Positions 1 to 11,534 of a DNA stretch of 20,824 bases are shown here, one piece after another. A model generated the notes under the pieces. It saw only the letters and a list, made by a program, of their open reading frames with translations. It made no database searches and had not been told where the DNA came from. Both the position numbers and the translations under genes were made by a program. The number at the start of each line of letters is the position of its first letter. Position 1 is the first letter of the stretch. The DNA comes from a virus (taxonomy: Duplodnaviria > Heunggongvirae > Uroviricota > Caudoviricetes), in the IMG/VR virus record IMGVR_UViG_2529293076_000030. One strand, given 5' to 3'.

Positions 1-1143
1 CTATGCTGTTTTGATATCTACGATAATCCAGTCTTTACCACGATCATCATTGTATCGGTCGGTCATTTTTCTGGATTTATGACCTAACAACTTTTGCGTA
101 TCCAGACCCTGTTCCCGATATAACCGTTCTGACAGAGATCGCTGCTCATGAAATGTGGGCGCAGTTCCTTGCTCCCATTTTATGCCACATTTTTCCCTGG
201 CCTTTTTAAAAGCCGTTGTAAGAGTATTTGCAGACACCTGGTCTCCTCTGTTTGCTTGAGAGGTAGTGTGACGGTAATGGACCAGATATTTACTAACAAC
301 AGCATCCCTGCACTGAGATATAACTTCACGAAGGGTAATATTCAGAGCATCGCATTTCAGGTTAAGCGGAATAGCAAGTTTTGAACCGGTTTTTTCCTGA
401 GTAATGTGCAACATGTCGTCCCAGATATCAGAGAATTTCAAATTGCAGATATCGCTTAAACGTTGTCCAGTGACAAGAGCAAGTAGCATCCCGCATTTTA
501 AATAGGGCTGCCGTCTGCTTACGCTGTCAAATATTGCCTGCCATTCGGGCAGTGATAATCTTTGACGGTTTACTCGATTTCGCGGTTGTTTTGTTGCCTG
601 CGCTGGGTTAAATCCTGGCGGAACATGTCCTGCGTGTTGTGCTTCTTTGAAGACGTCGATCAACACCATTCTCACGACTTGCGCCATCCTGTTATGACCT
701 TCAGCCTTTACAGCATCAATTATTTCGGCAATATCAAGTGCGGTAATATCCTTGAGGTGTTGCATTCCACAATGCTCACGGAAAAGACGGATGGGTTTGC
801 CTTTTTGCCGATAGGAGTTGGGTCTTAGTTCATTATGTTGCAGCCTGTCCTCCTGGATAGAATTATATTTATCAAGCCATTCTGTCACCGTAATGTCTGA
901 GCGCCTGCCTTTCATTCTTTCCAGACGCTCATTGACGCTTAATATTTGTCGGGTACGTTGTTCAGCAATAATGGTATTTGCTTCAGTAGCAACTTGTTTT
1001 GCTTCATTCTCATCAGTTCCTAAGCTATGAAAACGACCGGATAGTGGATGTTTGTATTGCCAATATACCTTTCCGGTTCGCTTATCTAATTTGCAATATA
1101 AATTGGGTATAGAGATTTTGTGAGATCGGGGGCTAGCAGCCAT
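1..1143 (-). CDS. int: Lambda-family tyrosine integrase (380 aa); stop codon at window positions 1-3
   Basis: Complete minus-strand ORF. N-terminus (SPRSHK...PNLYCKLDKRTGKVYWQY) and C-terminus (PTFHEQRSLSERLY...LLGHKSRKMTDRYNDDRG) align by eye with lambda Int arm-binding and catalytic regions, including the box-II HxxR and catalytic Tyr context. Recognition from memory. Confidence 0.85.
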   Translation of the reverse strand: MAASPRSHKISIPNLYCKLDKRTGKVYWQYKHPLSGRFHSLGTDENEAKQVATEANTIIAEQRTRQILSVNERLERMKGRRSDITVTEWLDKYNSIQEDRLQHNELRPNSYRQKGKPIRLFREHCGMQHLKDITALDIAEIIDAVKAEGHNRMAQVVRMVLIDVFKEAQHAGHVPPGFNPAQATKQPRNRVNRQRLSLPEWQAIFDSVSRRQPYLKCGMLLALVTGQRLSDICNLKFSDIWDDMLHITQEKTGSKLAIPLNLKCDALNITLREVISQCRDAVVSKYLVHYRHTTSQANRGDQVSANTLTTAFKKAREKCGIKWEQGTAPTFHEQRSLSERLYREQGLDTQKLLGHKSRKMTDRYNDDRGKDWIIVDIKTA

Positions 1144-1369
1144 CAGCGATTATCCGTTGGAGTTTTGGGTTTGCGTTTATTGGGAGTTGCGGTTCTGCAA
1201 GCGTTCCTACAAAACGGGAATTTCGGTCAATCATCCAGTAGCGACCAACTTTTATAGCGGGTGGGGCCATCATTTTCCCTTGCGCGTATTTTTTCAGAAC
1301 TCGCTCACTTGGTGCTAAGTCCCCAAATTCTTCTTTAGCCCAGTCCCGTAAAGTGATTAGTCGAGACAT
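1133..1369 (-). CDS. xis: Excisionase-like small DNA-binding protein (78 aa)
   Basis: Small basic ORF immediately upstream of int, overlapping its start by 11 nt. Strong SD (GAGGAGG on minus strand, + coords 1371-1379) before the ATG. Position and size typical of lambdoid Xis. Confidence 0.6.
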   Translation of the reverse strand: MSRLITLRDWAKEEFGDLAPSERVLKKYAQGKMMAPPAIKVGRYWMIDRNSRFVGTLAEPQLPINANPKLQRIIADGC

Positions 1370-1472
1370 TTGTCCTCCTCTTAGCTGCTGAGGGAGTTTG
1401 TGACCGATATATCTGACATGATATTAAGCTCATGGCAGGTACATCTCTTGACTGGTCATAGAGATAAATTTA

Positions 1473-2297
1473 ATGCTGAGAAATGCAGTATTGAATTTAT
1501 CAATTTTTCACCAGCTTCTGGTCTTTCTGGCTGTCATGCGCAAAACATATGGCTTTAATAAAAAACTGGATTGGGTTAGCAACGAGCAACTTTCCGAATT
1601 AACCGGGATATTGCCGCACAAGTGTTCTGCTGCAAAAAGTGTTCTGGTAAAGCGTGGGATTTTTATTCAGAGCGGGCGGAATACCGGCATTAATAATGTG
1701 GTCAGTGAATGGTCAACATTACCCGAATCAGGTAAGAAAAATAAAGTTTACCTGAAAGAGGTAAATTTACCTGAATCAGGTAAAAAAAGTTTACCCAAAT
1801 CAGGTAAAGGCGTTTACCCGAATCAGGTAAACACAAAAGACAAACTAACAAAAGACAATATAAAACCTTTTTCGTCCGAGAATTCTGGCGAATCCTCTGA
1901 CCAACCAGAAAACGATCTTCCTGTGGTGAAACCGGATGCTGCAATTCAGAGCGGCAGCAAGTGGGGGACAGCAGAAGACCTGACCGCCGCAGAGTGGATG
2001 TTTGACATGGTGAAGACCATCGCGCCATCAGCCAGAAAACCGAATTTTGCAGGGTGGGCTAACGATATCCGCCTGATGCGTGAACGTGACGGACGTAACC
2101 ACCGCGACATGTGCGTGCTGTTCCGCTGGGCATGCCAGGACAACTTCTGGTCCGGTAACGTGCTAAGTCCGGCCAAACTCCGCGACAAGTGGACCCAGCT
2201 CGAAATCAACCGTAACAAGCAACAGGCAGGCATGATAGCCAGCAAACCAAAACTCGACCTGACAAACACTGACTGGATTTACGGGGTGGATTTATGA
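1473..2297 (+). CDS. O: Replication initiator O (274 aa); C-terminal two thirds near-identical to lambda O, N-terminal DNA-binding part divergent and about 36 aa shorter
   Basis: Residues from ~FSSENSGESSDQPENDL to the C-terminus (..TNTDWIYGVDL) match lambda O as I recall it. Central part encodes repeated LPESGKK peptides from the iterons. No SD before the ATG at 1473; the frame opens after a TGA at 1449-1451. Confidence 0.85.
   Translation: MLRNAVLNLSIFHQLLVFLAVMRKTYGFNKKLDWVSNEQLSELTGILPHKCSAAKSVLVKRGIFIQSGRNTGINNVVSEWSTLPESGKKNKVYLKEVNLPESGKKSLPKSGKGVYPNQVNTKDKLTKDNIKPFSSENSGESSDQPENDLPVVKPDAAIQSGSKWGTAEDLTAAEWMFDMVKTIAPSARKPNFAGWANDIRLMRERDGRNHRDMCVLFRWACQDNFWSGNVLSPAKLRDKWTQLEINRNKQQAGMIASKPKLDLTNTDWIYGVDL
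1719..1830. repeat. Replication origin iterons: five 17-bp near-palindromic repeats (TTACCYGAATCAGGTAA-like) inside the O gene, followed by an A-rich stretch (1831-1867)
   Basis: Repeats seen directly at 1719-1735, 1750-1766, 1767-1783, 1791-1807 and 1814-1830. Arrangement (iterons then AT-rich region within the O linker) matches the organisation of ori-lambda, but with five copies and a different repeat sequence. Confidence 0.75.
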
Positions 2298-2995
2298 AAA
2301 ACATCGCCGCACAGATGGTTAACTTTGACCGTGAGCAGATGCGTCGGATCGCCAACAACATGCCGGAACAGTACGACGAAAAGCCGCAGGTACAGCAGGT
2401 AGCGCAGATCATCAACGGTGTGTTCAGCCAGTTACTGGCAACTTTCCCGGCGAGTCTGGCTAACCGTGACCAGAACGAACTGAACGAAATCCGCCGCCAG
2501 TGGGTTCTGGCTTTCCGGGAAAACGGGATCACCACAATGGAACAGGTTAACGCAGGAATGCGCGTAGCCCGTCGGCAGAATCGACCATTTCTGCCATCAC
2601 CCGGGCAGTTTGTTGCATGGTGCCGGGAAGAAGCATCCGTTATCGCCGGACTGCCAAACGTCAGCGAGCTGGTTGATATGGTTTACGAGTATTGCCGGAA
2701 GCGTGGCCTGTATCCGGATGCAGAGTCTTATCCGTGGAAATCGAACGCGCATTACTGGTTGGTTACCAACTTGTACCAGAACATGCGGGCCAATGCGCTG
2801 ACTGACGCGGAATTACGGCGCAAGGCTGCCGATGAACTGACCTGTATGACAGCGCGAATTAACCGTGGTGAGACGATACCTGAACCAGTAAAACAACTTC
2901 CTGTTATGGGCGGTAGACCTCTAAATCGTGCACAGGCTCTGGCGAAGATCGCAGAAATTAAAGCTAAGTTCGGACTGAAAGGAGCAAGTGTATGA
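2294..2995 (+). CDS. P: Replication protein P (DnaB helicase loader), 233 aa
   Basis: Near-identical over full length to lambda P as recalled (MKNIAAQMVNFDREQMRRIANNMPEQYDEKPQ...AKFGLKGASV). ATGA overlap with O stop. Confidence 0.92.
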   Translation: MKNIAAQMVNFDREQMRRIANNMPEQYDEKPQVQQVAQIINGVFSQLLATFPASLANRDQNELNEIRRQWVLAFRENGITTMEQVNAGMRVARRQNRPFLPSPGQFVAWCREEASVIAGLPNVSELVDMVYEYCRKRGLYPDAESYPWKSNAHYWLVTNLYQNMRANALTDAELRRKAADELTCMTARINRGETIPEPVKQLPVMGGRPLNRAQALAKIAEIKAKFGLKGASV

Positions 2996-3294
2996 CGGGC
3001 AAAGAGGCAATTATTCATTACCTGGGGACGCATAAGAGCTTCTGTGCACAGGACGTTGCCGCGGTAACAGGTGCAACCGTAACCAGCATAAATCAGGCTG
3101 CGGCTAAAATGGCGCGGGCAGGAATCCTGGTCGTTGATGGTAAGGTCTGGCGAACGGTGTATTACCGGTTCGCTACCAGAGAAGAACGGGAAGGAAAGGT
3201 GAGCACGAATCTGATTTTTAAGGAGTGTCGCCAGAGTGCCGCGATGAAACGGGTATTGAGGGTATATAAAAGAACATCAATGGGTACACAATGA
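2992..3294 (+). CDS. ren: Ren protein (100 aa), C-terminal end differs from lambda Ren
   Basis: MTGKEAIIHYLGTHKSFCAQDVAAVTGATVTSINQAAAKMARAGILV... matches lambda Ren; the last ~10 residues diverge, consistent with a recombination junction at the 3' end. ATGA overlap with P. Confidence 0.8.
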   Translation: MTGKEAIIHYLGTHKSFCAQDVAAVTGATVTSINQAAAKMARAGILVVDGKVWRTVYYRFATREEREGKVSTNLIFKECRQSAAMKRVLRVYKRTSMGTQ

Positions 3295-3311
3295 TGAAAC
3301 AGGTGAGTTGA

Positions 3312-3346
3312 GTTCAAACTGTAGTACAATTCTCTCCAGTTTGAAC
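3312..3346 (+). promoter_or_regulatory. Perfect 10-bp inverted repeat (GTTCAAACTG / CAGTTTGAAC) with 15-nt loop, 15 nt upstream of emrE start; function unknown
   Basis: Seen directly. No U-tract follows, so not a canonical intrinsic terminator. An SD-like AGGAAAG (3347-3353) follows before the emrE ATG at 3362. Confidence 0.3.
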
Positions 3347-3361
3347 AGGAAAGAATATGTT

Positions 3362-3694
3362 ATGAACCCTTATATTTATCTTGGTGGTGCAATACTTGCA
3401 GAGGTCATTGGTACAACCTTAATGAAGTTTTCAGAAGGTTTTACACGGTTATGGCCATCTGTTGGTACAATTATTTGTTATTGTGCATCATTCTGGTTAT
3501 TAGCTCAGACGCTGGCTTATATTCCTACAGGGATTGCTTATGCTATCTGGTCAGGAGTCGGTATTGTCCTGATTAGCTTACTATCATGGGGGTTTTTCGG
3601 CCAACGGCTGGACCTGCCAGCCGTTATAGGCATGATGTTGATTTGTGCCGGTGTGTTGGTTATTAATTTATTGTCACGAAGCACACCACATTAA
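3362..3694 (+). CDS. emrE: Small multidrug resistance (SMR) efflux transporter EmrE, 110 aa
   Basis: MNPYIYLGGAILAEVIGTTLMKFSEGFTRLWPSVGTIICY... matches E. coli EmrE essentially full length, including the conserved membrane-embedded Glu (E14) context. The ORF-track start at 3308 is an upstream extension. Confidence 0.92.
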   Translation: MNPYIYLGGAILAEVIGTTLMKFSEGFTRLWPSVGTIICYCASFWLLAQTLAYIPTGIAYAIWSGVGIVLISLLSWGFFGQRLDLPAVIGMMLICAGVLVINLLSRSTPH

Positions 3695-3724
3695 AAATAA
3701 TTTCTTTTAAAAGACTGCAATATG

Positions 3725-3757
3725 GCGGTTCATATCTTTACATGGGCCGCTTTTGTT
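3725..3757 (+). terminator. Candidate intrinsic terminator downstream of emrE
   Basis: Imperfect 9-bp stem (3725-3733 / 3742-3750, two G-U pairs), 8-nt loop, then TTTTGTT. Confidence 0.4.
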
Positions 3758-3938
3758 AATGTTTTTAGTTTTTGTGTATTCTTTTGTGCCTTCAAGATTA
3801 TTGCGTAAGCAAATTGCAATACGATTATTGTTGTATATTCAAGATAGTGTGATCGTAATTGTCTTTTTAAATAAAAATTAAACAAAAATTATATCTCACC
3901 ACTAAGGTTTATAAAAGCATAAGTTAGCAGGTGTCACC

Positions 3939-5465
3939 ATGAAAAAAGCCATAGCATATATGCGATTTTCATCACCAGGTCAGATGTCTGGCGACTCATT
4001 AAACCGACAGAGAAGACTTATTGCTGAATGGTTAAAGGTAAATAGTGATTATTATCTTGATACCATAACATATGAAGATTTAGGATTAAGTGCATTCAAA
4101 GGAAAGCATGCACAATCAGGAGCTTTTTCGGAATTTTTAGATGCTATAGAGCATGGTTATATATTGCCAGGAACTACATTGTTAGTTGAAAGTCTGGACA
4201 GACTTTCAAGAGAAAAAGTCGGTGAAGCGATTGAACGTCTGAAATTGATTTTGAATCACGGTATTGATGTTATAACTCTTTGCGACAATACAGTCTATAA
4301 TATTGACTCTTTGAATGAGCCATATTCATTAATAAAAGCCATACTTATAGCACAAAGGGCAAATGAAGAAAGCGAGATAAAGTCAAGTCGGGTTAAATTA
4401 TCATGGAAGAAAAAACGGCAGGATGCACTGGAATCAGGTACGATTATGACGGCGTCTTGTCCGAGATGGCTCTCCTTAGATGACAAAAGAACGGCTTTTG
4501 TTCCAGACCCCGACAGGGTGAAAACTATTGAGCTAATTTTTAAACTCAGGATGGAAAGGCGCTCATTGAATGCAATAGCCAAGTATTTAAATGATCATGC
4601 TGTAAAGAATTTCTCAGGAAAAGAAAGTGCATGGGGGCCTTCTGTAATTGAAAAATTATTAGCGAATAAAGCTCTGATAGGTATATGCGTACCTTCATAT
4701 CGTGCAAGAGGGAAAGGGATAAGTGAAATCGCTGGCTATTATCCCAGAGTCATATCAGATGATTTGTTTTACGCTGTACAGGAAATTCGGTTGGCACCTT
4801 TTGGTATTAGCAATAGTAGCAAGAATCCTATGCTAATAAATCTACTTCGAACAGTTATGAAGTGTGAGGCTTGTGGTAATACCATGATTGTTCATGCGGT
4901 ATCTGGAAGTTTGCATGGCTATTATGTTTGTCCGATGAGAAGATTACATCGATGTGACAGGCCATCAATAAAGAGAGATTTGGTTGATTATAATATCATT
5001 AATGAATTGCTTTTTAATTGTAGCAAAATTCAACCAGTTGAAAACAAGAAAGATGCTAATGAAACTTTAGAGTTAAAAATTATTGAGCTTCAGATGAAAA
5101 TTAATAATTTAATCGTTGCATTGTCTGTCGCGCCTGAAGTTACCGCTATAGCAGAGAAAATAAGACTATTAGATAAGGAATTACGAAGAGCTTTGGTATC
5201 ATTGAAAACTTTGAAGAGTAAAGGTGTAAATTCATTCAGTGATTTTTATGCTATTGACTTAACCAGTAAAAATGGACGAGAGTTATGCCGTACACTTGCC
5301 TATAAAATATTCGAAAAAATCATAATTAATACGGATAATAAAACCTGTGATATCTATTTTATGAATGGCATTGTTTTTAAACACTATCCTTTAATGAAAG
5401 TAATATCCGCCCAGCAGGCGATAAGTGCTCTCAAATATATGGTTGATGGTGAGGTTTATTTTTGA
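3939..5465 (+). CDS. ybcK: Large serine recombinase (508 aa), DLP12 YbcK-like
   Basis: N-terminal resolvase-type catalytic motif (AYMRFSSPGQ, with the putative nucleophilic Ser) followed by a long recombinase domain and a Cys cluster (CEACGN...C...C) typical of large serine recombinases. Matches K-12 YbcK in length and position after emrE. AT-rich codon usage. Confidence 0.8.
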   Translation: MKKAIAYMRFSSPGQMSGDSLNRQRRLIAEWLKVNSDYYLDTITYEDLGLSAFKGKHAQSGAFSEFLDAIEHGYILPGTTLLVESLDRLSREKVGEAIERLKLILNHGIDVITLCDNTVYNIDSLNEPYSLIKAILIAQRANEESEIKSSRVKLSWKKKRQDALESGTIMTASCPRWLSLDDKRTAFVPDPDRVKTIELIFKLRMERRSLNAIAKYLNDHAVKNFSGKESAWGPSVIEKLLANKALIGICVPSYRARGKGISEIAGYYPRVISDDLFYAVQEIRLAPFGISNSSKNPMLINLLRTVMKCEACGNTMIVHAVSGSLHGYYVCPMRRLHRCDRPSIKRDLVDYNIINELLFNCSKIQPVENKKDANETLELKIIELQMKINNLIVALSVAPEVTAIAEKIRLLDKELRRALVSLKTLKSKGVNSFSDFYAIDLTSKNGRELCRTLAYKIFEKIIINTDNKTCDIYFMNGIVFKHYPLMKVISAQQAISALKYMVDGEVYF

Positions 5466-5584
5466 GTAATAATCACTTTTTCAACCGTGCTATGGTATGA
5501 AAGTAAAGTAACTACTATGATATTAACTATCGAGCAAGAATATCCCCAGGCACTCAACAGGGCGCAGGTCAACGTGAATCGGTC

Positions 5585-5776
5585 ATGACACGACACCGAT
5601 TTTGCGGAATCAATGTTGCTTATGAATACAACATCCCGCTTAGTACATGTTCAACACATCAGCAAATTTTGAACTGGGTGTGGCACTTAACTGAAAAAAC
5701 ATGGATGACACAAAATGTTACTCGTCGCTTCATTGAAGTAGCTTGTGGATATCACAAGCTAGACTATCGCCAATGA
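5585..5776 (+). CDS. Hypothetical 63-aa ORF; possibly a gene remnant rather than a real gene
   Basis: ORF only. No convincing SD. C-terminal ...RRFIEVACGYHKLDYRQ is faintly reminiscent of AraC-family C-termini; in K-12 the AraC-type gene ybcM lies at this position. Speculative. Confidence 0.2.
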   Translation: MTRHRFCGINVAYEYNIPLSTCSTHQQILNWVWHLTEKTWMTQNVTRRFIEVACGYHKLDYRQ

Positions 5777-5871
5777 TATTCAATTTTTGATTTTTTAGTA
5801 TCAACCTTCCATAATAATGTCACCGGAGCTTGAACAACTCCGGTGACTTCTGCGCATTTAAGGGGACTTAA

Positions 5872-5970
5872 ATGCGACCACAATCTGAACTCCTTACCTT
5901 GTCACAGATGCAGAAATGCACCTGCGATGTCTTGCATCCAGCGTTTGATCTCTGCGGAGGTGAAGCGTGA
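5872..5970 (+). CDS. ylcH: Small protein YlcH-like (32 aa)
   Basis: ATG 5872; translation [32 protein letters not shown]. Stop TGA overlaps the GTG start of the next gene (GTGA). Position immediately upstream of ybcN as in DLP12. Identity from memory is uncertain. Confidence 0.4.
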
Positions 5971-6422
5971 ACCTCCCACAAGATGGCATCAAATTACATC
6001 GCGGTAACTTCACCGCTGTCGGTCAGCAGATCCAGACTTATCTGGAAGACGGCAAATGCTTTCGCATGGTGCTTAAACCGTGGCGCGAGAGACGCAGTCT
6101 TTCCCAGAATGCACTCAGCCACATGTGGTACAGCGAAATCAGTGAATACCTCATCAGCAGGGGGAAATCGTTCGCTACTTCAGCATGGGTAAAAGATGCT
6201 CTCAAACACACATACCTCGGTTATGAAACCAAGGACCTGGTTGATGTCGTAACCGGCGAAATCACTACTATCCAGTCGTTACGCCATACCTCCGATCTTG
6301 GTACCGGAGAGATGTATGTCTTCCTGTGTAAGGTTGAAGCCTGGGCGATGAATATTGGCTGCCACCTGACTATTCCACAGAGCTGCGAGTTCCAGCTGCT
6401 GCGTGACAAGCAGGAGGCGTAA
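5967..6422 (+). CDS. ybcN: NinB-family protein YbcN (151 aa), GTG start
   Basis: [19 protein letters not shown]...[12 protein letters not shown] matches K-12 YbcN. SD GGAGG at 5956-5960. Confidence 0.85.
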
Positions 6423-6592
6423 TGGCTACACCGCTTATTCGTGTCATGAACGGACACATCTACAAAGTACCAAATCGTCGTAAGCGTAAACCTGAGCTGA
6501 AGCCATCCGAAATACCAACACTGCTCGGATATACCGCCAGCCTGGTTGATAAAAAATGGTTGCGACTGGCAGCAAGGAGGAATCATGGCTGA
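6422..6592 (+). CDS. ninE: NinE (56 aa)
   Basis: [56 protein letters not shown]. Not in the ORF track (<60 aa). ATG overlaps the ybcN stop (TAATG). Confidence 0.8.
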   Translation: MATPLIRVMNGHIYKVPNRRKRKPELKPSEIPTLLGYTASLVDKKWLRLAARRNHG

Positions 6593-6875
6593 TTTGAGAA
6601 AAGCAGCGCGTAGTCGGGAATGCCAAGTAAGAATCCCTGGCGTATGTAATGGCAACCCTGAAACGTCTGTACTGGCACATATCCGGCTGACTGGATTGTG
6701 CGGCACCGGTACCAAACCGCCAGACTTGATTGCCACCATTGCATGTTCTGCCTGCCACGACGAAATCGACCGCCGCACACATTTTGTCGATGCTGCATAT
6801 GCAAAAGAATGCGCGCTGGAAGGTATGGCGAGAACACAGGTTATCTGGCTGAAAGAGGGGGTTATTAAGGCGTGA
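6585..6875 (+). CDS. ybcO: YbcO (DUF1364 putative nuclease), 96 aa
   Basis: True start is ATG at 6585 ([23 protein letters not shown]...), overlapping the ninE 3' end by 8 nt. The ORF-track start at 6546 is an upstream extension. Cys/His-rich motif. Confidence 0.8.
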
Positions 6876-7234
6876 ATACCTACAGCATCACATTACCCTG
6901 GCCTCCGAGCAATAATCGCTACTACCGGCATAATCGCGGGCGCACGCACATCAGCGCAGAAGGGCAGGCATACCGTGATAACGTCGCCCGAATCATCAAA
7001 GGCTCCATGCTGGATATCGGCCTGGCTATGCCAGTGAAAATCCGTATTGAGTGCCACATGCCGGATCGCCGTCGCCGTGACCTGGATAATCTGCAAAAAG
7101 CCGCTTTTGACGCACTCACCAAAGCAGGTTTCTGGCTGGATGATGCTCAGGTCGTTGATTACCGTGTTGTGAAGATGCCCGTTACCAAAGGTGGGAAGCT
7201 GGAGCTGACCATCACCGAACTGGGGAATGAATGA
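6872..7234 (+). CDS. rusA: RusA Holliday-junction resolvase (120 aa), GTG start
   Basis: [25 protein letters not shown]...[30 protein letters not shown] matches E. coli RusA. GTGA overlap with ybcO. Confidence 0.9.
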
Positions 7235-7371
7235 TGTTTGAGTCTTATATGGCAGAACGTCTTCGCCACCGCTGGATGCGCCTGCGCTTATATCGTTTTC
7301 CTGGTTCTGTTTTGACCGATTACCGGATACTGAAGAATTACGCCAAAACACTGAAAGGAGCTGCCGCATGA
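7231..7371 (+). CDS. ylcG: YlcG-like small protein (46 aa)
   Basis: [46 protein letters not shown]. Overlaps rusA stop and Q start. Confidence 0.6.
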
Positions 7372-8057
7372 ATACCCAATATTTACAGTATGTCCGCGAG
7401 CAACTCATTGTGGCTACCGCTGATTTGAGCGGAGCAACGAAAGGACAGCTTGAAGCCTGGCTGGAGCATGCACAATTTGATACTGGTACATACAAACGAA
7501 AGAAGCCGCGCATTCTGGATGAGGTAACTGGCAGGATGATTACGCTGGATAATCCGCCGATTTCCGGTAAGCAGTCGTACGCAAAAGGTTCATCCATTGC
7601 ACTGGTCAGCCAGGTTGAGTTCTCAACCTCGTCATGGCGCCGCGCGGTTCTGTCTCTCGAAGAACATCAGAAAGCGTGGTTGCTGTGGAGTTACAGCGAA
7701 AGTGTTCGCTGGGAACATCAGGTCACCATAACGCAGTGGGCATGGAGCGAGTTTAAGACTCTGTTGGGTACCAGGAAAATTGCAGGTAAGACACTGGAAC
7801 GTTTGAAGAAGTTGATCTGGCTGGCGGCACAGGATGTGAAGAACGAGCTGGCAGGGCGTAAGACCTATGAATACCAGGAGCTGGCATCACTGGTGGGAGT
7901 GACATCAAAAAACTGGTCTGAGACATTTACTGAACGCTGGGTTGCAATGAAACACATTTTTCTACAGCTTGATAGCCAAGCTTTATTGCTTTTAACGAAA
8001 ACACGTTCAAAACAAAAGACCACATTTTCACAGCAAGATATTGCAAAACTGGATTAA
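7368..8057 (+). CDS. Putative late-gene antiterminator (Q-like), 229 aa; not lambda Q
   Basis: Assignment is mainly positional: after rusA/ylcG, before a strong promoter, two intrinsic terminators and the lysis cassette. Sequence lacks the Cys cluster of lambda Q and I do not recognise its family with certainty. Confidence 0.5.
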   Translation: MNTQYLQYVREQLIVATADLSGATKGQLEAWLEHAQFDTGTYKRKKPRILDEVTGRMITLDNPPISGKQSYAKGSSIALVSQVEFSTSSWRRAVLSLEEHQKAWLLWSYSESVRWEHQVTITQWAWSEFKTLLGTRKIAGKTLERLKKLIWLAAQDVKNELAGRKTYEYQELASLVGVTSKNWSETFTERWVAMKHIFLQLDSQALLLLTKTRSKQKTTFSQQDIAKLD

Positions 8058-8069
8058 AAATCATATATT
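8041..8069 (+). promoter_or_regulatory. Candidate sigma70 late promoter (pR'-like): -35 TTGCAA (8041-8046), 17-bp spacer, -10 TATATT (8064-8069)
   Basis: Hexamers and spacing read directly. Overlaps the last codons of the Q-like gene, as pR' does relative to Q in lambdoid phages. Confidence 0.4.
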
Positions 8070-8125
8070 TTATGTAAATCTGATATTTTGCCAATGTTGT
8101 ACGCACTGGCAGTAATCCAAATTCA

Positions 8126-8159
8126 AGCCCGAGGTTTAAAGCCTTGGGCTTTTCTGTTT
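8126..8159 (+). terminator. Intrinsic terminator hairpin plus T-tract
   Basis: Stem AGCCCGAGG / CCTTGGGCT, loop ~5 nt, followed by TTTTCTGTTT. Confidence 0.55.
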
Positions 8160-8238
8160 CTGAACGGTGAGTAGCCTTCCAACCTACCCCAGCCAGGGGG
8201 TCTTCAGCTGTTGAGTTGATATTGCTTAGCCCTCTGTT

Positions 8239-8264
8239 GCCAGCTACATGCTGGCTTTTTTATT
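8239..8264 (+). terminator. Intrinsic terminator (tR'-like)
   Basis: Perfect 6-bp GC-rich stem GCCAGC / GCTGGC, 5-nt loop, then TTTTTTATT. About 188 nt downstream of the candidate promoter start, similar to the ~194-nt lambda 6S RNA. Confidence 0.6.
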
Positions 8265-8378
8265 CCAGGCTTGTGGGGAGCATCAACTCCGTGCTTTGTC
8301 GTTAAATTACCCCGTGAGCCTGATTTCTGACATTTAACGTCCCGGCCTTTTGTCGGCGGCGAAACATTGGCTATTCAT

Positions 8379-8684
8379 ATGCACGAAAAAGAGAGCCTTG
8401 CCGGAGCGTTCTGGCTCGTTTTGCTGATCATCGCAGGTTGGGGCGGTCTGGTCCGCTACCTGATAGATGTGAAGCAGAGTAAAGCAACGTGGAGTTGGAT
8501 AAATGCTCTGGCTCAAATAGTGGTATCAGGATTCACCGGTGTTATTGGTGGCCTGATCAGCATCGAAAGTGGATTCAGTATTTACATGATTCTCGCGACA
8601 GCGGGGATTAGTGGTGCGATGGGTTCGGTTGCACTGACGTACTTCTGGGAACGACTGACAGGGGTGAAAAATGCAAAATCTTAA
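8379..8684 (+). CDS. Putative holin (101 aa from ATG 8379), three predicted transmembrane segments; not lambda S
   Basis: Three hydrophobic stretches (AGAFWLVLLIIAGWGGLV; INALAQIVVSGFTGVIGGLI; IYMILATAGISGAMGSVAL) and a short charged C-terminus. Overlaps the endolysin start by 14 nt, as S/R do in lambda. The ORF-track start at 8367 is a TTG. Confidence 0.6.
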   Translation: MHEKESLAGAFWLVLLIIAGWGGLVRYLIDVKQSKATWSWINALAQIVVSGFTGVIGGLISIESGFSIYMILATAGISGAMGSVALTYFWERLTGVKNAKS

Positions 8685-9930: not shown

Positions 9931-10211
9931 GGTGTTATTCCCGATGCTTTTTAAAGTTCGCAGAATCGTATGTGTAGAAAATTAAACAAACCCTAAACAA
10001 TGAGTTGAAATCTCATATTGTTAATATTTATTAATGTATGTCAGATGCGAAGGATCGTCACTGTATTCCCGGATTAACTATGTCCGCAGCCCTGACAGGG
10101 AAACTCCTCTGCGGGAGTGTCCGGGAATAATTAATAACGATGCACACAGGGTTTAGCGCGTACACGTATTGAACCGCCCCGGTTTTCCTGGAGAGTGTTT
10201 TATCTGTGAAC

Positions 10212-11099
10212 TCAGGCTGCCAGATCATCGTTTCTGATGGAAGCATAATAAGCTTTTTCTGCTTCTGCCGGAGGGATATGACCCAGCCTTCCCAGCAATC
10301 GTCGATTGTTATACCAGTCCACCCACGTGAGTGTGGCCAGTTCCACTTCTGCACGGTTTTTCCAGCTCTTACGGTGTATTACCTCCGCTTTGTAAAGACC
10401 ATTGATGCTCTCCGCCATCGCGTTGTCATACGAGTCACCTGTACTCCCTGTTGATGCCAGCAGTTTTGCTTCTTTTAGTCGCTCCGTATAGGCCAGTGAT
10501 ATATACTGAGAACCTTTATCACTGTGATGGACTGTGCCGGACGGCCGACGGGCCCACAACGCCTGCTCCAGTGCATCCAGCACGAATGTCGTTTCCATAG
10601 ACGATGAGACTCGCCACCCCACGATACATCCGGCAAACACATCAATGATGAACGCCACATAGACGAAGCCCTGCCATGTGCTGACGTAAGTAAAATCAGC
10701 CACCCACAGCTGGTCAGGACGTTCTGCCACGAACTGACGGTTTACGCGGTCGCCTGCGGAAACGGCTTTCCGGCTGACGGTAGTACGGACCTTTTTACCC
10801 CGGAGAACACCGGCAAGTCCCATAACCGCCATGAGGCGCGCCACTGTACATCTGGCCACCCTGATACCTTCGCGTAACAACTGGCGCCAGACTTTACGCA
10901 CACCGTACACCTGATGATTTTCATCGTATACGCGCTGTATCTCTCTCTTCAGCCAGTCATCGCGCTGAGCACGGGCACTGCGTTTATCAGGATGATGTCG
11001 CTGTTGCTGACAGTGGTAATACGTTGACGGGGCAATATGCAGTTCACTGCATACCGGTCCGACCCCGTACTGCTCACGCAGCTTATCCAGCAGCGGCAT
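10212..11099 (-). CDS. IS629-type transposase OrfB (DDE integrase-like catalytic domain), 295 aa from first ATG; normally expressed as an OrfAB fusion by -1 frameshift
   Basis: Contains DDE-type motifs (WVADFTY..., HSDKGSQY..., YDNAMAESINGLYKAE) characteristic of IS3-family transposases. In the -1 frame relative to orfA. Confidence 0.85.
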   Translation of the reverse strand: MPLLDKLREQYGVGPVCSELHIAPSTYYHCQQQRHHPDKRSARAQRDDWLKREIQRVYDENHQVYGVRKVWRQLLREGIRVARCTVARLMAVMGLAGVLRGKKVRTTVSRKAVSAGDRVNRQFVAERPDQLWVADFTYVSTWQGFVYVAFIIDVFAGCIVGWRVSSSMETTFVLDALEQALWARRPSGTVHHSDKGSQYISLAYTERLKEAKLLASTGSTGDSYDNAMAESINGLYKAEVIHRKSWKNRAEVELATLTWVDWYNNRRLLGRLGHIPPAEAEKAYYASIRNDDLAA

Positions 11100-11425
11100 T
11101 ATTTTTTCCAGAGGCGGTCGAACTCCGCCTTCGCAAAATAAGCGGAAGCCTGGCGAAGGATATCGTTACTGCGGCGCAGTTCACGATTTTCACGTTCCAG
11201 CTCTTTCAGACGCTGACGTTCAGCGGTGGTGAGTCCACCATCACCACTCCCGGTATCCCGCTCATGCTGACGAACCCACACACGCAGAGTCTCTGGTGTA
11301 CAGCCAATCTTTGGGGCAATGGAACAAATTGCCGCCCATTGTGAGTCATATTCGCCCTGACTTTCCAGAACCATACGAACTGCTCGTTGACGGACCTCGG
11401 GGGAAAAACGTGTATTTTTAGTCAT
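11099..11425 (-). CDS. IS629-type transposase OrfA (108 aa, HTH/leucine-zipper part)
   Basis: [57 protein letters not shown]... typical IS3-family OrfA. Ends ...WKK* at an A6 run that overlaps the orfB start. Confidence 0.85.
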
Positions 11426-11534
11426 CCTGTTTACCTCTTTCTCAGGGAGTTTAGTCTCCAGGATTCCCGGGGCGGTTCATATTGCATTATGCCAACGCCC
11501 CGGTGCTGACACGGAAGAAACCGGACGTGATGAT

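Follow-up and report, generated by a model that had tools for sequence, protein, structure and literature searches.

What controls the late genes of a lambdoid prophage from which the immunity region has been lost, and why should two transcription terminators stand in tandem ahead of its lysis genes? These questions are raised by the short stretch 3′ of the Q-like gene in the DNA considered here. The window (the whole stretch of 20,824 nt that was analysed) was found to be a lambdoid prophage located beside icd in E. coli O157:H7, collinear with Sp8 of strain Sakai; adding 1618349 to a window coordinate gives the position in NC_002695.2. The gene order is int, xis, replication genes, ren, a recombinase, ninB and ninE, followed by ybcO, rusA, ylcG, Q, holin, endolysin, Rz, bor and the head genes. 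The gene content of the window includes none of cI, cro, cII, N and pR, so that the original remark that the prophage has no repressor holds. Because cI, cro and N are absent, the usual route to Q expression is missing, and a Q82-type protein could instead be supplied in trans by another prophage. The original prediction placed a late leader of the pR′/qut/tR′ architecture directly 3′ of the Q-like gene. The features of the region, all on the plus strand, are as follows.

7368-8057, plus strand: Q antiterminator gene of the phage 82 type, 229 aa (PF06323, E = 1.4e-94; 98.3% amino acid identity to phage 82 Q).
8041-8046, plus strand: -35 hexamer TTGCAA of pR′ (-35 to -30), lying within the Q coding sequence.
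8047-8063, plus strand: promoter spacer AAACTGGATTAAAAATC, 17 bp, the probable Q-binding element (QBE) from its position and conservation.
8064-8069, plus strand: -10 hexamer TATATT (-12 to -7).
8076-8078, plus strand: predicted transcription start, +1 = 8076, with initial AAA (from published 82 pR′ landmarks).
8081-8092, plus strand: predicted sigma70-dependent pause element, extended -10-like (+6 to +14), plus discriminator, fitting the description of the 82 pR′ (PMC5001585).
8088-8112, plus strand: leader hairpin 1 (UGCCA...UGGCA with an inner 3-bp stem), -8.5 kcal/mol, corresponding to the first helix of isrJ.
8100-8101, plus strand: putative promoter-proximal pause site, +25/+26.
8125-8163, plus strand: terminator 1, the tR′ of an 82-type leader, with its stem at 8125-8151 and an interrupted U-tract (UUUUCUGUUUCUG), corresponding to the second helix of isrJ.
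8163-8186, plus strand: remnant of a tRNA-Arg(UCU) gene, 24 nt, with 12-nt and 36-nt deletions, recognised by collinearity with the IMG/VR contig L030.
8194-8236, plus strand: structured spacer between the tRNA remnant and terminator 2, -16.4 kcal/mol, conserved in L030.
8239-8264, plus strand: terminator 2, GCCAGC-UACAU-GCUGGC followed by U6, just 5′ of the lysis module.
8379-8684, plus strand: holin gene (LydA type; PF16083 and RefSeq annotation), the first late gene, with endolysin and Rz next.

The open reading frame at 7368-8057 matches PF06323 over its full length. This Pfam entry represents the Q82 family, and the three families of Q proteins have no obvious mutual sequence similarity (PMC9388147). 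The phage 82 record used in the comparison of Q proteins (X92588.1) stops at the Q stop codon. Since the two Q proteins are 98.3% identical, a late promoter of the phage 82 type would be expected in the DNA 3′ of the gene. The phage 82 late promoter has itself long been used as a model for sigma70-dependent pausing and Q loading.

The hexamers TTGCAA and TATATT, separated by 17 bp, are present at 8041-8069 just as originally described. They had also been called near-consensus, a description that did not survive a hexamer scan: the promoter matches only 9/12 consensus positions, and the scanned 3.5 kb contained four sites as good as this one, compared with 3.8 expected from shuffled sequences. 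By itself, the consensus match is no better than chance, and the significance of the promoter comes from homology and conservation, not from its consensus score. Terminator-like sites in the same scan numbered 7, compared with 3.7 ± 2.1 expected.

Comparison with the phage 82 promoter was made through textual landmarks in the literature and not by direct sequence alignment. The wild-type 82 pR′ has an initial AAA and a GCC discriminator at +15-17, and its -10-like pause element is nearer to consensus than that of lambda and carries an extended -10; pausing occurs at +25/+26, with U at +25 in the wild type, and a 1-nt insertion at +18 places a G at the pause end (PMC5001585), from which it follows that +24 of the 82 pR′ is G. 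In the window, TG is found at 8081-8082, TATTTT at 8084-8089 (+9 to +14) and GCC at 8090-8092. Setting this GCC at +15 to +17 puts +1 at 8076, and nucleotides 8076-8078 are then AAA; position 8099 is G (+24), and position 8100 is T (U at +25). All five published landmarks (AAA, extended -10-like element, GCC, G at +24 and U at +25) fit a start at 8076, which is where the original prediction had expected transcription to begin. The QBE of phage 82 was mapped between the -35 and -10 elements, inside the interval from -31 to +30 (PMC4914094), a location that corresponds to 8047-8063 in the window. This spacer is therefore proposed only as the probable QBE, with binding of Q suggested by the correspondence. 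The -35 hexamer and the spacer overlap the 3′ codons of Q, and the Q stop codon (8055-8057) is located inside the spacer.

Evidence that this arrangement is maintained came from an alignment of 11 phages of Escherichia, Salmonella, Klebsiella, Enterobacter and Cronobacter, the Q proteins of which are 48-99% identical. All 11 have in common TTGCAAAA, parts of the spacer, the -10, the start region and TG.TAT; the TTG of the -35 and the AAAA that comes next are invariant, and a hairpin with a T-tract follows the promoter in each. Gifsy-1 is 91.5% identical to the window over 8040-8086, and its promoter motif is found about 0.8 kb 3′ of Q, from which it is separated by the isrK-orf45-anrP insertion; no Q coding sequence overlaps it there. 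Since Gifsy-1 preserves the spacer in non-coding DNA, this stretch is conserved as a DNA element in its own right, beyond its place at the 3′ end of the Q reading frame.

From the invariant positions, a degenerate motif of 46 nt was built that spans the region from the -35 to the pause element. The window contains it once, compared with 0.00 occurrences expected. A scan of IMG/VR with this motif, combined with further related loci, yielded at least 104 distinct promoter-plus-leader sequences. Among the matches listed, a Q82-like open reading frame (45-99% identity) is located upstream in 102 of the 104 distinct leaders, overlapping the -35 in 98 and standing apart from it, as in Gifsy-1, in 4; the remaining 2/104 run off the end of their contigs. 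In bacterial assemblies sampled at one genome per species, the motif was found in 39 species, all of them Enterobacteriaceae save for one 795-bp scaffold labelled Kocuria, which is probably a contamination. The motif is a near-perfect marker of Q82-type late operons in the Enterobacteriaceae.

Both intrinsic terminators that had been placed at 8126-8159 and 8239-8264 were found, with stems at 8125-8151 and 8239-8255. The RNAs predicted to run from 8076 to these sites, about 81-85 nt and 187-189 nt, agree with the lengths of about 85 and 190 nt given originally. Terminator 1 consists of 12 pairs (-17.8 kcal/mol) with the tail UUCUGUUUCU. Among the matches listed, a terminator-like site is present within 300 nt in 81 of 103 related leaders, and the end of the first terminator is found at a median of +75, mostly between +70 and +79; it is at +76 here. 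The basal pairs of the terminator covary across 35 leaders: pair 57-81 is GC in 21, AU in 10 and GU in 4, and pair 58-80 is CG in 23 and AU in 8. The 84-nt RNA from 8076 to 8159 folds into two hairpins with a free energy of -27.6 kcal/mol (z = -4.0).

Hairpin 1 is less uniform. Equivalents with other sequences (GUCG/CGAC, UGCUGCC/GGCGGCA) are found in other leader classes, and class-by-class folding showed that the hairpin is absent from the short 434 and phiES15 classes. A consensus fold of the 35 leaders recovered the terminator alone, with hairpin 1 out of register between classes, and the median z in class-by-class folding was only -0.9, so that support for hairpin 1 is moderate. It is probably useful yet not essential. 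The interval 8058-8378 was also considered as coding DNA and rejected, as none of its small open reading frames exceeds 29 aa and none has support.

The leader also bears a relation to a known RNA family. Positions 1-75 of the Rfam isrJ model (RF01393) align over their full length to 8073-8152 with a score of 30.4 bits (E = 9.6e-4), below the Rfam gathering score of 37. In Enterobacter and Klebsiella phages, and at the isrJ locus of Gifsy-1, this model reaches 57-100 bits. The accepted matches in four related leaders (L005, L008, L009 and L011) begin 16 nt past the Q stop codon, and the offset in the window is the same. Judged by synteny and structure, the predicted leader RNA of about 82 nt is thus a diverged member of the IsrJ family. 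IsrJ, for its part, is situated on a late promoter of the 82 type, and its simplest interpretation is that of the terminated leader RNA of the Gifsy-1 late promoter. High transcription of IsrJ in lysogens, whatever the condition, has been described (10.1101/787010) and would be expected of a constitutive pR′. No statement that IsrJ is a late-promoter leader RNA was found in the literature searched; such an identity would matter for the interpretation of its regulation and of the virulence phenotype reported for it. No known RNA family reached its curated threshold in the region; weak matches to trpB, rseX, MicC and other families were dismissed as chance level. At the corresponding coordinates of strain Sakai, an Hfq crosslinking catalogue contains neither an sRNA nor an Hfq-CRAC peak.

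The origin of terminator 2 was revealed by L030, a sequence collinear with that of the window between the start site and the holin gene; in L030, an intact tRNA-Arg(tct) separates tR′ from the second terminator. ARAGORN detected no tRNA in the window, and the remnant at 8163-8186 was recognised only through this collinearity. In the structured spacer that follows, the inner stem shows paired changes between the two sequences, CAGCUGUUGAGUUG versus CAGCCGCAGAGCUG. Terminator 2 itself has 6 pairs, 5 of them G-C (-10.7 kcal/mol), and the tail UUUUUUAUU. Three different G+C-rich stems occupy its position in the window, in L030 and in phage mEp237, and all three share the TTTTTTATT tract after the stem and then the same block of about 70 nt before the lysis genes. 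In mEp237, this junction is preceded by a different Q and by an inserted, unrelated gene; the junction is also present in Salmonella phage UPF_BP1. The shared tract and block, together with the differing stems and the different Q of mEp237, argue that terminator 2 belongs to the junction of the tRNA-Arg cassette with the lysis module, and not to the Q-pR′ module. Tandem terminators also appear not to be a family property, because a second terminator-like site within 300 nt is found in only 22 of 103 related leaders among the matches listed. Terminator 2 is a real, selected terminator that here backs up tR′ by happenstance, and the tandem arrangement is an evolutionary leftover, as the tRNA of the cassette was destroyed by two deletions. 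A designed double insulator was not borne out by these comparisons.

A related reading retains a selective role for the pair: terminator 1 would be leaky, and terminator 2 would have been kept because read-through into the holin and endolysin genes would be lethal where the prophage lacks repressor control. The interrupted U-tract of terminator 1 is consistent with leakage, as is the behaviour of t500, a phage 82 terminator with a GC-containing, imperfect U-tract that gave 31-68% termination in vitro (10.1101/453969, PMC6978380). The survival of terminator 2 while the neighbouring tRNA decayed, and the presence of three different stems before the same U-tract, also point to selection at this position. 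However, the rarity of a second site among the related leaders listed (22/103) and the fact that terminator 2 accompanies the tRNA cassette and the lysis junction, rather than Q and pR′, argue against this reading. The same layout is moreover found in PhiR47_2, a complete phage genome record, and is thus not peculiar to repressor-less prophages, and the derivation of t500 from terminator 1 is presumptive. We regard a selected double insulator as doubtful, and the data can be explained in its absence. Still less probable, in our estimate, is that the RNA of about 82 nt is itself the selected product, a trans-acting regulatory sRNA that would be made constitutively from the cryptic prophage and, by analogy with StxS and IsrJ, would act on host or prophage mRNAs; promoter and terminator would operate no differently under this reading. 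Its homology to IsrJ would be in keeping with such a role, since IsrJ was reported to be necessary for efficient Salmonella invasion (as cited in 10.1101/787010), and StxS, an RNA that runs from pR′ to tR′, has sRNA function (PMC7547250). Hairpin 1 is maintained in several sequence versions, and the unit is intact although the prophage lost its immunity region; 872 of 5426 complete E. coli genomes carry the unit. On the other hand, no Hfq-bound RNA is catalogued at this site in Sakai, the single-stranded parts of the leader are highly variable, the short 434 and phiES15 classes are without hairpin 1, and the DNA pause element already accounts for the conserved 5′ 17 nt. It is likewise improbable, as a combined proposition, that IsrJ-family RNAs are terminated 82-type late leaders across the Enterobacteriaceae and that the form in Sp8 is a StxS-like trans-acting sRNA, which would explain the retention of the unit. 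If it were true, retention for the sake of the sRNA would account for an intact unit in a prophage without an immunity region.

The promoter could also face the other way. Hexamers on the minus strand, TTGGCA-16-TAAAAT (8094 to 8067), match 10/12 consensus positions, more than the 9/12 of the plus-strand promoter in the same AT-rich stretch, and the annotation of phage 434 shows a CII site and paQ at the corresponding location. The functional promoter might be the minus-strand one, or else a paQ-like promoter activated by CII, and its RNA would be antisense to the 3′ end of Q. However, the minus-strand hexamers vary in relatives (TGCCAA to TCGCCA, ATTTTA to ATTTCA). The CII-type repeat TTGCN6TTGC (8046 to 8033, minus strand) occurs once in the window, compared with 1.77 expected by chance, and is missing from most relatives; the prophage, in addition, has no cII. 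Neither element being conserved, and the repeat not exceeding chance, both were judged to be probably fortuitous. That the functional promoter faces the minus strand is very unlikely, and a promoter there would be compatible with the plus-strand unit in any case.

The region from 8041 to 8163 is thus very probably the unit that controls the late genes in Sp8, a lambdoid prophage of the phage 82 type, and would work as in phage 82. The sequence identities, the conservation, the covariation of the terminator and the collinearity with relatives were observed directly. A cognate Q82-family gene is located directly upstream of the leader, and the sequence contains a promoter with its predicted start, a putative pause element and a terminator ahead of the late genes, as expected of an 82-type late unit. 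The original assignment of a pR′/qut/tR′ late leader is upheld by the PF06323 Q and by the 82 landmarks.

The mechanism that this reading implies takes its start site, pause and Q loading by analogy from the published biochemistry of phage 82. Host sigma70 RNA polymerase would initiate constitutively at 8076 from TTGCAA/TATATT. Sigma70 would then re-bind the extended -10-like element (+6 to +14), and the polymerase would pause at +25/+26 (8100-8101). Q would bind the spacer DNA between the -35 and -10 elements and load onto the paused polymerase, which would become resistant to terminators, so that transcription in the presence of Q would pass both terminators into holin, endolysin, Rz and the head genes. 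Without Q, most transcripts would stop at terminator 1 (about +81 to +85), giving the two-hairpin IsrJ homologue of about 82 nt. Polymerases that leak through would reach terminator 2 at about +187, and a minor species of about 188 nt may form. For this prophage, we infer the RNA ends and the leak-through, as well as the activity of the unit in Sp8 itself, from these correspondences.

The late-control element is already known, both as a type (phage 82) and through the prophage that carries it, and it is not novel; the understanding of Q antitermination is unchanged by these findings. The additions are modest and consist of exact coordinates, the connection with IsrJ and the origin of terminator 2 in a tRNA cassette. 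The late promoter, its start, the pause, tR′, the tRNA pseudogene and terminator 2 can now be assigned coordinates in Sp8 and its relatives, where all of them are currently unannotated.

Among known systems, the IsrJ locus of Gifsy-1 shares with the window the promoter/pause motif (91.5% over 8040-8086), a two-hairpin RNA that ends at a terminator, and an upstream gene of the Q82 family. It differs in the sequences of both hairpins, the window copy scoring 30.4 bits, and in the insertion of about 0.8 kb (isrK-orf45-anrP) between Q and the promoter. StxS of the Stx phages Sp5 and Sp15 is likewise a short RNA from an antiterminated late promoter in O157 lysogens (PMC7547250), whereas its promoter and leader are different, and Hfq binding and targets have been shown for StxS; the sequence searches that were run gave no match to it.

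The pR′-qut-tR′ region of lambda follows the same logic, with a constitutive promoter, a sigma70-dependent pause, Q loading from a site between the -35 and -10 elements, and a short RNA that stops at a terminator ahead of the lysis genes. In contrast, lambda Q belongs to PF03589, which is unrelated to the PF06323 family found here, the lambda pause is at +16/17 rather than at +25, and lambda has a single terminator at +194, whereas tR′ here is at about +80. The unit in the window is therefore a functional analogue only of lambda 6S/pR′, and its defining features are not those of the lambda type. The comparison of the longer RNA, of about 190 nt, with lambda 6S RNA stands as far as length is concerned; this RNA is not conserved, the conserved species being the one of about 82 nt, and the two Q families are unrelated.

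The U-tract of terminator 1 is interrupted by GC, as described for phage 82 t500. The t500 terminator, which has been called a mutant terminator, differs from it in having a 7-bp, all-GC stem, compared with the 12-bp mixed stem of terminator 1. The sequence of t500, which we take to be CAAAGCCCGCCGAAAGGCGGGCTTTTCTGT, shares AAGCCCG...GGGCTTTTCTGT with terminator 1, from which t500 was presumably derived. The sequence CAAAGCCCGCCGAAAGGCGGGCTTTTCTGT was also found, unlabelled, in a primer of PMC7072734; a literature search for a ‘t82’ terminator gave no useful match.

The closest counterpart is the pR′ of phage 82 itself, the model of the Roberts and Nickels laboratories. The two have Q proteins that are 98.3% identical, and they share the initial AAA, the extended -10-like element, the GCC, the G at +24, the U at +25 and, probably, the position of the QBE within the spacer. 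Compared by these textual landmarks, the promoter and pause of the Sp8 unit show no detectable difference from those of phage 82.

In the early region of the prophage (window 1-7368), int and xis are followed directly by the genes for replication. No immunity region (cI, cro, cII, N, pL, and pR) is present, so the usual route to Q expression is missing, and some strains, such as PV15-279, have lost all of the DNA between xis and ylcG. The following features were identified around the late promoter and further downstream:

8033-8046, minus strand: TTGCAATATCTTGC, a match to the CII-binding consensus TTGCN6TTGC
8067-8094, minus strand: promoter-like site TTGGCA-16-TAAAAT (10/12 match)
8163-8186: tRNA-Arg(UCU) gene remnant, lying between terminators 1 and 2
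8256-8330: conserved block of ~70 nt, beginning at the T-tract of terminator 2, ahead of the lysis genes
about 10000-11450: IS3-family element, inserted between bor and ybcV
11028-11144, minus strand: ALIL frameshift pseudoknot, part of the IS3-family element

The minus-strand promoter-like site is directed into the 3′ end of Q. The site lacks conservation among relatives and is probably fortuitous in AT-rich DNA. The site equivalent to the CII-like match was marked paQ by the annotators of phage 434. This match is the only one in the whole window, compared with 1.77 expected by chance, and the prophage that carries it lacks cII.

The tRNA remnant was recognized by collinearity with the IMG/VR contig L030, which carries an intact tRNA at the same position; relative to L030, the window copy has suffered deletions of 12 nt and 36 nt. 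In the Klebsiella phages L009 and L011, the slot filled by tRNA genes in other relatives is occupied by the Rfam sRNA STnc100 (2366-2558 and 2364-2558, respectively), with the isrJ-type leader ~80 nt upstream. The block that begins at terminator 2 is ~80% conserved upstream of the lysis genes in mEp237, L030, and UPF_BP1, which differ in their Q modules and terminator stems, and contains a weak hairpin (8272-8293) followed by CUUUGUCGUU. Farther downstream, the IS3-family element is annotated as IS1203 in matching genomes; unlike the window, Sakai Sp8 has no insertion between bor and ybcV.

The enterobacterial 82-type promoter motif is also present on a 795-bp scaffold of an actinobacterial assembly (Kocuria sabuli, L137), which probably reflects contamination. 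In Salmonella Gifsy-1 (L003), the isrK-orf45-anrP insertion sits between the Q gene (antQ) and the sRNA gene isrJ (2501-2608). No statement that IsrJ is the terminated late-leader RNA of Gifsy-1 was found in the literature searched. Because isrJ begins at the position where a phage 82-type late promoter, with its pause element intact, initiates transcription, IsrJ looks like such an RNA.
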